A DNA stretch of 33,184 nucleotides from the NCBI RefSeq assembly GCF_006345805.1, contig NW_021829605.1, positions 1 to 33,184 of the forward strand. The letters are read 5' to 3'. The first letter of the stretch is position 1, and each line of letters begins with the position of its first letter. A program made the translations under genes and the position numbers. The DNA is from Octopus sinensis (lineage: Eukaryota). The notes beneath the pieces are model-generated. The model saw nothing but the letters and a program-made list of their open reading frames with translations. It had not been told where the DNA came from and searched no databases. Shown one piece after another: positions 141 to 23,619 of the stretch.

Positions 141-271
141 GGAAAGGGGAGAGCAGAAATTCTTCGCTTGCATATTTGAATTTGTTGGCACTGTTAGTAT
201 CGAGCAGATCTTCAGAAGCGATAACAAGCCGAAAGGGTATGCTTCCACTTTCAGTGTTTTCAAATCCAAAC

Positions 272-345
272 CAGGGAGTTCTGAGCTGATGATAGAAATG
301 TCGGTTTTGACTAATCTTGAAACGTACGTTCTCAAATAACCTTTG
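272..345 (+). ncRNA. Type I hammerhead ribozyme, unit 1
   Basis: Stem I TGAG (282-285)/CTCA (331-334); CTGATGA 286-292; stem II AGA..GTCG/TGAC..TCT; GAAAC 319-323; palindromic stem III AC-GTAC-GT; GUU triplet 328-330. Confidence 0.8.
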
Positions 346-831
346 CATTGATTTTTTTAATGTCTCTTCCCCCATACTTTCGTGAGTTGAATTGAGCAAA
401 CACTATATGAGAGAGGTTTTCTTTAAGTATTGGAAATAGTTTTAAAAAAGTTTTTTTTTAGCTGCTATTTCTAATGAGTTCAGTATGCGGCAAAGTAATT
501 TATTTTACTAAGCCCTTTTATATAATGTAATAATTTGAATTCGCCTTAAATGGTCCCTTTGCATACTGAATACTTGGTGAAATTGATTAATTAATTAATT
601 TTACCCTCAATTGTTAAAATTATAATTCATCTCTCTCTATATAATGCCTCGGATTTTACCGAAAAAAGCATAGTGTTTGCTGATTTTAGCCCACGCTGGT
701 GGAAAGGGGAGAGCAGAAATTCTTCGCTTGCATATTTGAATTTGTTGGCACTGTTAGTATCGAGCAGATCTTCAGAAGCGATAACAAGCCGAAAGGGTAT
801 GCTCCCACTTTCAGTGTTTTCAAATCCAAAC

Positions 832-904
832 CAGGGAGTTCTGAGCTGATGATAGAAATGTCGGTTTTGACTAATCTTGAACGTACGTTCTCAAATAACC
901 TTTG
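832..904 (+). ncRNA. Type I hammerhead ribozyme, unit 2 (GAAAC reads GAAC)
   Basis: CTGATGA 846-852. One A is missing at 879-882, either a real inactivating deletion or a homopolymer error. Confidence 0.6.
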
Positions 905-1383
905 CATTTGATTTTTTTAATGTCTCTTCCCCCATACTTTCGTGAGTTGAATTGAGCAAACACTATATGAGAGGTTTTCTTTAAGTATTTGAAATAGTTT
1001 TAAAAAAGTTTTTTTTAGCTGCTATTTCTAATGAGTTCAGTATGCGGCAAAGTAATTTATTTTACTAAGCCCTTTTTATAATGTAATAATTTGAATTCGC
1101 CTTAAATGGTCCCTTTGCATACTGAATACTGGTGAAATGATTAATTAATTATTTTACCCTCAATTGTTCAAATTATAATTCATCTCTCTCTATATAATGC
1201 CTCGGATTTTACCGAAAAAAGCATAGTGTTTGCTGATTTTAGCCCACGCTGGTGGAAAGGGGAGAGCAGAAATGCTTCGCTTGCATATTTGAATTTGTTG
1301 GCACTGTTAGTATCGAGTAGATCTTCAGAAGCGATAACAAGCCGAAGGGTATGCTCCCACTTTCAGTGTTTTCAAATCCAAAC

Positions 1384-1457
1384 CAGGGAGTTCTGAGCTG
1401 ATGATAGAAATGTCGGTTTTGACTAATCTTGAAACGTACGTTCTCAAATAACCTTTG
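1384..1457 (+). ncRNA. Type I hammerhead ribozyme, unit 3
   Basis: CTGATGA 1398-1404, GAAAC 1431-1435, predicted cleavage after 1442. Confidence 0.8.
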
Positions 1458-1941
1458 CATTTGATTTTTTTAATGTCTCTTCCCCCATACTTTCGTGAGT
1501 TGAATTGAGCAAACACTATATGAGAGAGGTTTTCTTTAAGTATTGGAAATAGTTTTTAAAAAATTTTTTTAGCTGCTATTTCTAATGAGTTCAGTATGCG
1601 GCGCAAAGTAATTTATTTTACTAAGCCCTTTTATATAATGTAATAATTTGAATTCGCCTTAATGTCCCTTTGCATACTGAATACTTGGTGAAATTGATTA
1701 TTAATTAATTTTACCCTCAATTGTTAAAATTATAATTCATCTCTCTCTATATAATGCCTCGGATTTTACCGAAAAAAGCATAGTGTTTGCTGATTTTAGC
1801 CCACGCTGGTGGAAAGGGGAGAGCAGAAATTCTTCGCTTGCATATTTGAATTTGTTGGCACTGTTAGTATCGAGCAGATCTTCAGAAGCGATAACAAGCC
1901 GAAAGGGTATGCTCCCACTTTCAGTGTTTTCAAATCCAAAC

Positions 1942-2015
1942 CAGGGAGTTCTGAGCTGATGATAGAAATGTCGGTTTTGACTAATCTTGAAACGTACGTT
2001 CTCAAATAACCTTTG
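1942..2015 (+). ncRNA. Type I hammerhead ribozyme, unit 4
   Basis: CTGATGA 1956-1962, GAAAC 1989-1993, predicted cleavage after 2000. Confidence 0.8.
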
Positions 2016-2190
2016 CATTTGATTTTTTTAATGTCTCTTCCCCCATACTTTCGTGAGTTGAATTGAGCAAACACTATATGAGAGAGGTTTTCTTTAAGTA
2101 TTGGAAATAGTTTTAAAAAAGTTTTTTTAGCTGCTATTTCTAATGAGTTCAGTATGCGGCAAAGTAATTTATTTTAACTAAGCCCTTTTA

Positions 2191-3420: not shown

Positions 3421-3695
3421 TTGCCGCGTGGAAGGTGTTTGTAAGCCATTTAAGAAACACACAAAAGCCGTTCGATTCACTTCAACATTTAAGTTTAATT
3501 TGTCAAAATATTTTCGTCGCTTTAAGACCGCGACCTGTTCACTGACAAAAAGATGCAGCACGGATTTTTGTCAGTGAACAGGTCGCGGTCTTAAAGCGAC
3601 GAAAATATTTTGACAAATTAAACTTAAATGTTGAAGTGAATCGAACGGCTTTTGTGTGTTTCTTAAATGGCTTACAAACACCTTCCACGCTGCAA
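3421..3695. repeat. Long palindrome: 131-bp arms (1 mismatch) and a 13-nt spacer
   Basis: 3421-3551 is the reverse complement of 3565-3695. Spacer GATGCAGCACGGA. Confidence 0.97.
3567..3617 (+). ncRNA. Minimal type I hammerhead-like motif with G3-C8 core variant (mirror copy 3499-3549 on minus)
   Basis: Stem I TTTGTCA/TGACAAA; core GTGAACA 3574-3580; one extra G; stem II GTCGC/GCGAC; GAAA 3601-3604; 1-bp stem III with palindromic ATAT loop; H17=U at 3610. Confidence 0.6.
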
Positions 3696-3832: not shown

Positions 3833-3886
<54 letters not shown>

Positions 3887-4088
3887 TGTAATAAATAAAA
3901 TATATGCATACATACAAACATATATGTACGTACCTACATACTACATGTATATCTACATGCATAATAAATATATATACACTTGAGTACAGGACACCACAAC
4001 TAGACGTAGAACTCAACGAGAAACGAAAACGGAAAAAACCCATTTTTACAACAGAAAAAACAGTACAGGACATACTACACAAGGAAAA

Positions 4089-4150
4089 TCCCCTATCATC
4101 AGCTGTCACTAGTTCGGCTCCAGCGTGTTTCGAAGGCAAGACAGGACACG
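4089..4150 (-). ncRNA. Hammerhead ribozyme candidate with permuted strand order, copy 1
   Basis: Minus strand: CGTGT-C-CTGTC-TTG-CCTTC-GAAACACG-[small hairpin]-GACAG-CTGATGA-TAGGGG. GUC site at C=4145. Confidence 0.7.
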
Positions 4151-4479
4151 ACTCACTAAACTAGTCCTTCCTGCGAGAGAATTAAAATAAAATTGCCTCG
4201 CAGAGGGGTTTAACAAAGCAAGAAAAATGTATCACAAACAGGACGTAGAAACGATACAAATAAAACTACAAAATAAAATACAAGATAAAAATACATGTAC
4301 AAGAAAATACAATACGAGAAATAAAAAGAAAATAGAATACGAGAAATAAAAATAATAATAAACAAGAAAACAAACGAAAAGGCCTTTTTTCTGGCTGAGA
4401 CGAAGGAGATTCTAGCAGCGCATGAGAACACAAATGTGTGTCTTTATAGTTTGAAAGCCGCGTGTAAAAGGAAGTGGCA

Positions 4480-4543
4480 AAGATGAGGAGGAGTGAGAGA
4501 GAGAGAGATAGAGGAAGACAAGCGGCTGAGAGAGAGATGAGGA

Positions 4544-4585
<42 letters not shown>
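4480..4585. repeat. (GA)n-rich tract
   Basis: Read directly from the sequence. Confidence 0.9.
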
Positions 4586-4586
<1 letters not shown>

Positions 4587-5077
4587 AAGGTAAAGTAAAG
4601 AGAGAAAGAATTTCGCGTCATAATTATATATAAAACAGTACTGGGAGATAACCAAGAAAAAAGCAACAAGAATGGATTAGTAGTTTAGTACAATTGTTTC
4701 ATACTAAGAACAATTTTATTTAAAGCTGCAAGTATTGCAGCAAATACAAATGTCCAGTATTCATCAGCTAAATCACATATATGTTTTCCAGACATCCTAG
4801 AGAGTGTGTCTATCCTCATGAAGTATTAGGAGTGAGTTCTATGAAATCTAGCTAGAGAATTGAACCATTTTAATACTTCATCAGTATTTAGCCAAAGACT
4901 TAAGGGAAGGATCGGGGTTATTTGGGGTAGAACAGTATCCAAGATAGATTTACTAAGTCGACCAAGGTCTGACTTAGTTGGACAAATAATCCATTCTTGT
5001 TGCTTTTTTCTTGGTTATAATCGCCCCACATTTTTTATGGTTAATACCATAAACAATTCTGGTGCATCTAAGTTAAG

Positions 5078-5869: not shown

Positions 5870-7500
5870 ACAGACGCAGAGTGTAGATGAGCTGATATAC
5901 ACACAGTACATATGGTAACTGCATAAATAGATACAGTGTGTAGATTTTGATTGGATAGATACACACACAATATCTTGATGTTGACTCGTTAAATAGACGC
6001 AGTATGTAGACGCTGACAGGACTGATAGACAGAGAATGCAAATGTTATGAGTGTAGATAGACACAGTGTGTAGATATTGACTGGAAACATAGACACTGTG
6101 TATAGATATTGGCAGGAAAGATAGACACTGTGTGTAGATATTGACTGGAAATATTGACACAGTGTGTAGATATTGACTAGAAATATTGACACTGTGTGTA
6201 AATATTGATAGGAAAGATAGACACAGTGTGTAGATATTGGCAGGAAATATTGACATAGTGTGTAGATATTGACTGGAAATATTGACACTGTGTGTAGATA
6301 TTGACTGGAAATATTGACATAGTGTGTAGATATTGACTGGAAATATTGACACAGTGTGTAGATATTGACTGAAAATATTGACACTTTGTGTAGATATTGA
6401 CAGGAATATTGACACAGTGTGTAGATATTGACTAGAAATATTGACACTGTGTGTAAATATTGATAGGAAAGATAGACACAGTGTGTAGATATTGACTGGA
6501 AATATTGACATAGTGTGTAGATATTGACTGGAAATATTGACACAGTGTGTAGATATTGACTGGAAATATTGACATAGTGTGTAGATATTGACTGGAAATA
6601 TTGACACAGTGTGTAGATATTGACTGGAAATATTGACATAGTGTGTAGATATTGACTGGAAATATTGACACAGTGTGTATATTGACTGAAAATATTGACA
6701 CTTTGTGTAGATATTGACAGGAATTATTGACACAGTGTGTAGATTTGACTGGAAATATTGACACTGTGTGTAAATATTGATAGGAAAGATAGACACAGTG
6801 TGTAGATATTGACTGGAAATATTGACATAGTGTGTAGATATTGACTGGAAATATTGACACAGTGTGTAGATATTGACTGGAAATATTGACATAGTGTGTA
6901 GATATTGACTGGAAATATTGACACAGTGTGTAGATATTGACTGGAAATATTGACATAGTGAGTAGATATTGACTGGAAATATTGACACAGTGTGTAGATA
7001 TTGACTGGAAATATTGACACTTTGTGTAGATATTGACAGGAAATATTGACACAGTGTGTAGATATTGACTGGAAACATAGACACAGTGTGTAGATATTGA
7101 CAGGAAAGATAGACACAGTGTGTAGATATTGACTGGAAATTTGACTGGAAATATTGACACTGTGTGGTGTAGATGTTGACTGGAAAGATAGAAATATTGA
7201 CACAGCACGTAGTTGTTAACTGGATAGATAGCCATATTGTGTAGATTTTGCCTGGATAGATAGACGTAGAGTGTAGATGTTGACAAGATTGATGCAGTGT
7301 GTAGATGTTGACTAGATAGAAAGACAGCGTGTAGATGCTGACTGGATAGATCGACAGAGGGTATAGATTTTCACCTCATGTAGATAGAGTGTATAGATGT
7401 TGACAGGATAGATGGGCACAATGTGTAGATGTAGAGTGGATTTATAGACACAGTGTGTAGATGTTGACTGGATAGATAGACGAAGTGTGTAGATATTGAA
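5870..7500. repeat. 32-bp minisatellite GTGTGTAGATATTGACTGGAAATATTGACACA
   Basis: Period 32 (e.g. 6481, 6513). Homogeneous core at about 6060-7165 with degenerate edges. Confidence 0.95.
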
Positions 7501-8130
7501 TGAATGGATAAATACAGTTTATAAATGTCAACCTGTGATACATAATATTTAATCATTTGCTATTGAAATTCTGGTTCAAATCCGGGAATCGTTTGTGTAT
7601 GTGTGGGCGCATGCGTACTTCTTGTGTGCCAGCGCGCACAGGTGTTTATGTATGCATGTGCGTGTGTTTGTGCGTAAGTAGGTATATATGTGTGCATGTG
7701 TGTATGTGTGTGTGTGTGTCTGTGTAAATGTGTGCTGTGTGTGCTTGTGTGTCTATGGATCTTAACCCATCTAATATGTCTTCATTTCCTTATTCAGAAG
7801 ATTGACATTTTCCAATTTCCTGTTGGAGAACATCATTCAATTTAGACTCATCAAATACGAAATACGTCGTATAAGAACAGAAGCACTTGGCATGTAATGT
7901 AGCCGTTTTAGAATTCACCTGACCTGCTAATCCTGCACCGAAACCTTTCTTCGAAGTCGATCATTCCCTACCCCCCCCCCGCCCCCGCCGTTAATACCCG
8001 AGCCATTATAGTGTAATTCCTTATCTCTTCATTAACGTAAACCCCAAATGATGGGTTTTATACGTCAATCAATATACTGCTAGTGTTTACCCTATTTACC
8101 TTCTCGTAATCCCTGATCTAGTAATTCATA

Positions 8131-22277: not shown

Positions 22278-22305
<28 letters not shown>
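22010..22305. repeat. TA-rich compound repeat (~115-bp unit, 2 copies; part recurs at about 23612-23650)
   Basis: AGATACATGCATACATACATATATACGTTGTAA and AGGTATGTATGTATATTCATA are repeated. Confidence 0.8.
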
Positions 22306-22312
<7 letters not shown>

Positions 22313-22506
22313 AATAAAATAGAATATATGCATATATATAAACATATATGTACGTACCTACCTCTACATGTACATATACACGCATATATGTGTACAGGAC
22401 ACCAAAAAGACGTCGAACACATAGAGAGACGAAACACATAGACACAAACCAAGGAACAAGACAAGCAAAAAAAAGGAGAGATACAGGACAATAAGCACAA
22501 CGAAAA

Positions 22507-22572
22507 ATCCCCTTCTTCAGTCGCTAAGATTTCATCTACTAAACGTTTCGAAGGATAAAAGCGAGACGTATA
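22507..22572 (-). ncRNA. Hammerhead candidate with permuted strand order, copy 2
   Basis: Minus strand: TATACGT-C-TCGCT-TTT-ATCCTTC-GAAACGTTTA-[AGAT/ATCT hairpin]-AGCGA-CTGAAGA-AGGGGAT. GUC site at C=22565. Confidence 0.7.
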
Positions 22573-23367
22573 CTTCGAAGAAAAATTCCTTCCCGCGAAA
22601 AGCAAATCAATTAAAATTCTGAGATCTTTTCGCAGAGGGGTAAAAAAAAGCAAGACGGTAACGACAGTACAAACATATAAACAGTAAAAAATATATATAT
22701 AAACAGTGGAAAAATAAATATATAACAGTGAGAGACAGGACAAGGAGAACAAGATAAGAGGGCTGTTAACGCCAGACGAAAAAAGTATTGCAAACGCTGG
22801 ATTATCGTGGAAGACGAGAGAGGGAAAATTTGTCGACCAGAAGCCTTACAAGGCGGGCGAGAAAAGACAGGATAGCAGTTACGACGGAATATCGTCGCAG
22901 ATGGATGACGGGAATGGGGGAGGAGGAGCAAGAGGAAGAGAGAGAAGAAGGGGAATGGTGCGAGGAGACCATGAAGAATGGTGAAAGGGAGAGAGAGAAT
23001 GAAGAATGAGAGAGAGAGGAAGAGACAAGTTAAGTGAGGGAAAAAAAAGACGAAAAAGGGAATGGGAGAGAAAAGAAAGATGCAGAGTCGCGTGAGAGTT
23101 AATATCAAGGCTAACTTGATAAACAGAACAATCTTACTTAATAGGGTGCGTGCGTTTAGTCGTATAATATGTTAATAAAATAGAATATATGCATATATAT
23201 AAACATATATGTACGTACCTACCTCTACATGTACATATACACGCATATATGTGTACAGGACACCAAAAAGACGTCGAACACATAGAGAGACGAAACACAT
23301 AGACACAAACCAAGGAACAAGACAAGCAAAAAAAAGGAGAGATACAGGACAATAAGCACAACGAAAA

Positions 23368-23433
23368 ATCCCCTTCTTCAGTCGCTAAGATTTCATCTAC
23401 TAAACGTTTCGAAGGATAAAAGCGAGACGTATA
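23368..23433 (-). ncRNA. Hammerhead candidate with permuted strand order, copy 3
   Basis: Identical to copy 2. GUC site at C=23426. Confidence 0.7.
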
Positions 23434-23553
23434 CTTCGAAGAAAAATTCCTTCCCGCGAAAAGCAAATCAATTAAAATTCTGAGATCTTTTCGCAGAGGG
23501 GTAAAAAAAAGCAAGACGGTAACGACAGTACAAACATATAAACAGTAAAAAAA

Positions 23554-23619
<66 letters not shown>

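Follow-up and report, generated by a model that had tools for sequence, protein, structure and literature searches.

A young octopus retroelement family carries a conserved split-core permuted hammerhead that probably cleaves its RNA

A non-coding insertion in the octopus genome is bounded by long direct repeats, each bearing the motifs of a rearranged hammerhead ribozyme. What kind of element is it, how is it copied, and does its RNA cleave itself? The insertion lies in a window of 33,184 nucleotides of Octopus sinensis DNA (assembly GCF_006345805.1, contig NW_021829605.1, positions 1 to 33,184 of the forward strand), which is the whole stretch analyzed and the reference for the coordinates below (Table 1). 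A sequence-only reading had proposed a non-autonomous ribozyme retroelement family whose 861-nt monomer would be released by cleavage at two GUC sites.

RESULTS

The insertion is one copy of a young non-coding family with Penelope-like anatomy

Most of the local description given by the sequence-only reading was confirmed. The two repeats are exact over 386 bp (22306-22691 versus 23167-23552, offset 861) and align over 396 bp at 99.7%; their termini are not TG..CA, (TA)n runs adjoin both sides of the insertion, and the longest ATG-started frame on either strand spans 56 aa. On the minus strand, the last letters of the two GUC triplets fall at 22565 and 23426, as described. Positions within the unit are numbered from u1 (22306) to u861 (23166), with the minus strand taken as the RNA.

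The insertion is one copy of a young non-coding repeat family, hereafter family A. A 321-nt query drew 1,951 candidates from the genome, the 40 scored being all 99-100% identical, while an exact 19-nt ribozyme motif had 1,247 matches (control 0), a count that takes in part of a subfamily at 76-86%. The first 100 motif matches by position, with two further loci left out, gave a sample of 73 distinct loci; L301, which carries a LINE insert, was left out of the 5'-end tallies (n = 72). The RNA 3' end fell at the equivalent of 22306 (u1-18) in all 70 loci with a visible 3' end, nearly always at (TA)n, whereas 5' ends were scattered among the 72 loci. The permuted endpoints that might have been expected of a circle were thus not found: only the 5' end varies. 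Tandem copies, by comparison, proved as frequent as anticipated, the u861/u1 junction being passed in 34/72 loci (longest copy, 3.4 units). Since an exact 30-nt junction sequence was also present in 54 fetched loci, some of them overlapping, the duplication is not an assembly artefact. A TA run adjoined the 3'-side alignment end in 66/73 loci and the 5' side in 51/73, one inverted copy was joined 5' to 5' (L305, the one inverted pair in the sample), and none of the 73 loci bore an ORF. Four contig sets that we guessed to be RNA cover the unit and three cross the junction; such contigs reveal no ends, strand or circles.

Fixed 3' ends, variable 5' truncation, partial tandems, inverted 5' copies and a preference for (TA)n are the anatomy of non-autonomous Penelope-like elements (PLEs), so the "terminal repeats" are best read as a partial tandem, that is, as pseudo-LTRs, as had been suggested. 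An LTR element was rejected on the same grounds and on the termini. We place the start of reverse transcription at 22306, with an ambiguity of about 4 nt from TA overlap. Because this fixed end lies 259 nt downstream of the predicted cut, copying appears to begin from a set position rather than from the end made by the ribozyme.

The units of one tandem differed by a median of 0.5%, versus 2.4% between loci (20 tandems, p ~1e-5), and this roughly fivefold greater likeness points to one continuous template. It speaks against end-to-end template jumps between random linear monomer RNAs, one of two other ways in which tandems could arise. The second, DNA duplication after insertion, would also yield near-identical units if recent, and at L301 a LINE 3' piece, presumably CR1-like, sits within a subfamily A2 unit, unit and insert being repeated together in tandem. 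Yet one junction is common to all tandems, their partial unit invariably lies 5', and 0/72 5' ends lie at u840-861, which leaves no class of full-length monomers. We therefore regard an origin by jumps or by duplication as quite improbable and retain the continuous template.

Table 1. Features of the insertion and of the neighboring sister copy in the window
Feature	Position	Strand	Remark
Whole insertion	22306..23563	-	A complete 861-nt unit and a partial one truncated at its 5' end, ~1.46 units
Full unit	22306..23166	-	22306 is the fixed RNA 3' end
Partial unit (pseudo-LTR)	23167..23563	-	TA-rich end; several other copies stop there too (u393-396)
Unit junction with AC-rich "tail"-like stretch	23141..23180	-	
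(TA)n target, RNA 3' side	22280..22305		
(TA)n target, RNA 5' side	23554..23617		Any target duplication would be masked by TA
Split-core permuted hammerhead, copy 1	22509..22640	-	Core motifs and pairing analysis
Copy 1, X5; hairpin Y	22640-22636; 22635-22593	-	
Copy 1, stem II strand; stem II'	22592-22587; 22555-22550	-	
Copy 1, I-II helix	22586-22582 with 22533-22529	-	
Copy 1, stem III strand and GUC; GAAA and stem III	22569-22565; 22549-22543	-	
Copy 1, stem I; stem I'	22564-22560; 22525-22521	-	
Copy 1, CUGAAGA; X3	22520-22514; 22513-22509	-	
Predicted scissile bond, copy 1	22564..22565	-	Hammerhead analogy and genomic 5'-end pile-up just 3'
Ribozyme, copy 2	23370..23501	-	Identical to copy 1; predicted cut between 23426 and 23425
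Sister family B, 5'-truncated copy	3885..4648	-	
Family B ribozyme	4090..4208	-	Same architecture, compensatory changes

The ribozyme is a permuted hammerhead with a split core

An Rfam scan of the window gave no ribozyme family at E<=1, only simple-repeat miRNA noise. The core motifs CUGANGA, GAAA and NUH are nevertheless present, in the 5' to 3' order site, GAAA, CUGANGA (type-SGC order), and stems I, II and III surround the core with covariation across 21 representatives. The permuted hammerhead of the sequence-only reading thus stands in its core order and stems, but not as a simple permutation of blocks, since the ribozyme is larger and draws its stem II strand from upstream. In all families the partner of the strand before GAAA is a segment located 21-32 nt upstream of the cut, and the strand after CUGANGA pairs with X5, just before hairpin Y, which ends at G10.1 (A9, G10.1 and C11.1 are used here in what we take to be the usual hammerhead numbering).

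A search pattern gave 562 matches outside families A and B, versus 12 in controls, and these split into further families. The 21 representatives comprise eight families of the Octopus sinensis genome and 13 metagenomic sequences, L313 having been dropped as a near-copy of L311. Pairs were counted on anchored positions; a MAFFT alignment of 19 ribozymes shifted the Naiad rows by one column. With a parser that picks the strand positions maximizing pairing, and shuffles that ignore relatedness, stem I was paired in 102/105 cells (45 double-sided changes; partner-swap maximum, 73), stem III in 61/63 (24; maximum, 46), the upstream stem II in 105/105 (41; maximum, 81) and helix X in 82/84 (46; maximum, 53).

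Our initial reading was a plain type-SGC hammerhead, in which stem II forms with the strand directly after CUGANGA and the upstream pairings act as an off-state switch. Such a state would shield templates and circles, and in family A a helix of the downstream strand with stem II' is indeed feasible, though rich in wobble pairs (score 3.0 of 5). Across the representatives, however, downstream pairing reached only 50-51/105 cells, within what shuffled sequences give (means 42-44, maxima 56-60), most metagenomic Naiads allow 0-1 bp downstream of CUGANGA, and it is the upstream strand that keeps the first pair of stem II as G-C, the canonical G10.1-C11.1 pair, in 21/21. The plain type-SGC fold was accordingly dropped as highly improbable.

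For the split fold, helices X and Y together were matched by at most 5 of 100 shuffles in 19/21 representatives; X, Y and stem II are flush in 16/21, and X directly follows A9 in 18/21, with two weak rows (L177 and L338). We infer that two flush helices, X and Y, would bridge the gap between A9 and G10.1. The helix joining stems I and II reached 4-12 bp at best over the 21 representatives, a range given without a null run, and about 5 bp in family A, where the minimum-energy prediction has the stem II strand caught up in a local hairpin.

Genomic 5' ends pile up at the predicted cut

A cut RNA offers only u1-u259 as template, so 5' ends are expected just 3' of the cut. Nine of 38 first-turn 5' ends lay at u240-260 (p=3e-6 versus uniform expectation), whereas none of the 24 later-turn ends that reach u223 or beyond did so (Fisher p=0.0095; turns tallied by hand). 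Genome-wide, 36 TA-flanked 5' junctions on the reverse strand fell at u245-261 (p ~1e-7), versus 8 at u223-239, 9 at u262-274 and 8 at u275-291 in control windows; forward-strand counts (188, 53, 33 and 34), inflated by repeated starts, were not used. The excess lies just 3' of the cut site that had been predicted from the motifs, and we take it as indirect evidence suggesting cleavage in vivo.

The majority of ends in the peak are set 5-15 nt inward of the cut, at a TA microhomology (u250-252) to which they are trimmed, and a stall of the reverse transcriptase could therefore contribute to the peak. A stall combined with microhomology would account for all of it if the fold were a hammerhead-derived protein-binding or packaging structure that no longer cleaves. 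The split core is without precedent in the literature searched, and PLE hammerheads are, in the texts available to us, often weak or protein-assisted (PMC4209133, PMC11167929). Against this, a better 4-nt microhomology at u264-267, 5 nt upstream of the cut, lies in the window holding 9 ends versus 36, the peak is missing from later turns, and distant taxa retain CUGANGA, GAAA and NUH together with every stem, even if the scan itself required these motifs. We consider a non-cleaving fold unlikely and favor cleavage.

The same fold lies behind Naiad reverse transcriptases

The fold was found within 1.5 kb behind reverse transcriptase (RT) remnants of Naiads in 8/30 Octopus sinensis loci, and an 18-nt motif of a published octopus Naiad consensus had 337 exact genome matches (control 0). 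A Naiad RT profile drew 52 metagenomic loci, in 41 of which the sequence continues for 300 nt or more past the RT match. In a scan that required the CUGANGA, GAAA and NUH motifs, 17/41 carried a permuted hammerhead on the sense strand behind the RT (14 split, 3 of type CSG); antisense permuted hammerheads and classical-order hammerheads were each found in 0/41. An N-terminal GIY-YIG together with a DKA motif was present in 8 of the 17 ribozyme-bearing loci, most others being cut short, and the DKA motif in 12. In L346:67-1785, L348:125-1906 and L352:114-1796, a ubiquitin hydrolase domain (Pfam UCH, E 1e-25 to 2e-29) is joined to the C-terminus of the Naiad-like RT, and the split ribozyme then follows each.

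Craig et al. 2021 (PMC8557442) describe Naiads as lacking canonical hammerheads, some being listed as "HHR_core" or "HHR_half_core" in the portions available to us. Among 17 Naiad 3' ends from their supplement, judged by eye and represented by about 600 nt each for 11, the split form fits five (two octopus, squid with a looser fit, hydrozoan and box jelly) and CSG fits four (three nematodes and one spider); one is ambiguous and seven are without any fold. By the same inspection, split or CSG fits six of seven "HHR_half_core" families, of the eight that exist. The ribozyme of family A thus likely descends from a Naiad 3' UTR. The element itself has no ORF and so is not an autonomous Naiad, which would carry an ORF with N-terminal GIY-YIG and DKA.

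Candidate mobilizing enzymes

All 107 Naiad RT matches in the genome are broken, the best open frame reaching 320 aa, in agreement with the sections of Craig et al. consulted (PMC8557442). No intact Naiad was found among 150 scored of 185 candidates with one degenerate 124-aa query, a search that a distant active Naiad could escape. Two PLE families do have intact ORFs with RT and C-terminal GIY-YIG, of 775 aa and 781 aa, whose C-x4-C-x2-C motif would fit Neptune or Nematis. The 3' end of the 775-aa Neptune-like family resembles the 40-nt unit junction (0 and 1 of 1000 shuffles), a likeness that is short, low in complexity and picked post hoc; two compared copies of this family are only 94.7% alike. 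The 781-aa Neptune-like PLE was rejected, as it has its own 3' end with no junction likeness (303/1000 shuffles), and the split ribozyme is absent from the 1.3 kb after its ORF. This second family is young (L121-L124 in G000, ORFs 99.0-99.6% alike), with an upstream ORF of ~479 aa and a 3' UTR holding repeated CRE-like and CCAAT-like words and no hammerhead that we could find.

Family-A-like copies adjoin 4/30 GIY-YIG loci, two in each orientation, as fits shared (TA)n targets. At one of the four, L134:2805-3200, a family-A-like copy of 85% identity directly meets the 3' end of a PLE shortened by its last ~15 bases, with no TA run between; this junction is possibly a template switch. As mobilizer we lean tentatively, at less than even odds, toward an undetected Naiad; the 775-aa family is a slightly weaker candidate, and some other enzyme is less likely still.

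Sister family B and other repeats

The diverged copy at 3885 that the sequence-only reading had assigned to the same family does exist but belongs to a separate, older sister family, B, being 76.6% identical to the 861-nt unit over 141 nt; family B copies are ~89-93% alike among themselves. Adjoining it at ~4665-4775 (minus strand) is a type I-order hammerhead with palindromic stem III and a long loop II, and a further CUGAUGA stands at 4884.

Elsewhere in the window, positions 141-2190 (plus strand) hold a tandem array of ~555-bp units (starts 141, 701, 1254 and 1811) that ends in (TA)n. Each unit has CUGAUGA and three have GAAA; by eye they form a type I hammerhead whose stem III is short and palindromic, and the array looks like an ordinary non-LTR retrozyme. 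The window also contains a near-perfect 131-bp inverted repeat with a 13-nt spacer (3421-3695) and a minisatellite array of 32-bp units (5927-7518). Another tandem family, of 780-bp period and with the same type of GAAA...CUGAUGA spacing, was seen at L190:2872 and 3652.

DISCUSSION

From the observed copy anatomy, pairing pattern, presence behind Naiad RTs and 5'-end excess at the cut, our overall reading, to which we give a probability of roughly 0.78, is that of a young non-coding family targeting (TA)n, likely copied in trans by a PLE RT, with a conserved split-core permuted hammerhead that likely cuts its RNA between 22565 and 22564. A GIY-YIG endonuclease would nick the (TA)n target and cDNA would start at the fixed internal site downstream of the cut. 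Cleaved linear RNA would then yield inserts of ~250 nt, and uncut read-through RNA or a ligated 861-nt circle would yield inserts longer than one unit; we hold the two long templates about equally probable. Within the ribozyme, the predicted arrangement of helices X and Y is a coaxial stack, a single helix with a nick at which A9 enters and G10.1 leaves, so that a normal core may form.

The closest structural relatives are the type SGC and CSG hammerheads of Eckert et al. 2023 (PMC10085705), which, in the text searched, share with the element the cyclic order of site, GAAA and CUGANGA, a short linker between stems I and II and a helix joining the far sides of these stems. In types SGC and CSG, block C is intact, whereas in the element it is interrupted between A9 and G10.1, where X and hairpin Y hold it together. 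According to the searched text, the gap between CUGAnGA and its stems exceeds 1-2 nt in no known hammerhead. The split fold would thus be type CSG opened inside a block that those authors took as unbreakable. That text reports two CSG sequences and mentions no retroelement context, unlike the CSG folds found here in Naiad 3' UTRs. The pseudoknot (PK) hammerhead (PMC11300833) likewise adds a helix and a pseudoknot to a hammerhead core, the loop of its helix II-equivalent pairing with an added stem-loop joined to helix I; its description, in the text at hand, mentions no A9/G10.1 break such as the element has. Hammerhead variants with additional helices are also mentioned in PMC13725137, as far as its text was available. 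In the open literature searched, including PMC12192606, PMC10162972, PMC4209133 and PMC13725137, permuted hammerheads in Naiads are unreported, and the same literature, with PMC11300833, holds no report of a helix inserted between A9 and G10.1; subscription papers and, for Naiads, preprint supplements fall outside this scope.

As a mobile element, family A resembles Naiads as described in the sections consulted (PMC8557442) in its 5'-truncation, partial tandems as pseudo-LTRs, inverted 5' copies and (TA)n targeting, and shares the ribozyme fold of Naiad 3' UTRs, though without their ORF. It likewise resembles animal non-LTR retrozymes (Cervera and de la Pena 2020, PMC7229834; Li et al. 2026, bioRxiv 10.64898/2026.07.22.740005), which in the text accessible to us consist of non-coding tandem units with one ribozyme each and have been proposed to be non-autonomous PLEs. 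Those retrozymes carry type I hammerheads, mostly in units of 150-450 bp (Li et al. list units as long as 972 bp), and their circular RNA is established, whereas for family A a circle is one of two candidate templates. The element behaves as an animal non-LTR retrozyme or a non-autonomous PLE would, but its hammerhead is not of type I. Plant LTR retrozymes differ from it in having true LTRs of equal length with TG..CA ends and a type III hammerhead.

The fixed 3' end and AC-rich junction fit the start site of the anole Poseidon PLE, which, in the part of Frangieh et al. 2024 seen (PMC11167929), is reverse transcribed from a fixed internal AC-rich site into AT-rich DNA; unlike the element, it is autonomous and has a canonical ribozyme. 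In the same part, insertion in vitro did not require the anole ribozyme, and reads ending at the cut of that ribozyme were absent.

A wider reading, which we hold only tentatively and at less than an even chance, is that the hammerheads of Naiads across animals may be active and permuted in a non-circular way, one class being of four pieces with a core that is open between A9 and G10.1 and shut by two stacked helices, and that family A may be a circularizing Naiad-derived RNA taken up for rolling reverse transcription by another PLE clade. If cleavage is confirmed, the stated views that Naiads are without hammerheads and that the CUGANGA block cannot be interrupted would both be overturned. 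Non-circular permutations of the hammerhead, so far rare and metagenomic, would then number thousands of copies in the genomes of animals, copies that Rfam and standard descriptors miss. The 5'-end excess, for its part, would be a genomic sign of a PLE ribozyme acting on its templates in vivo, and so bears on the role of ribozymes in PLEs.
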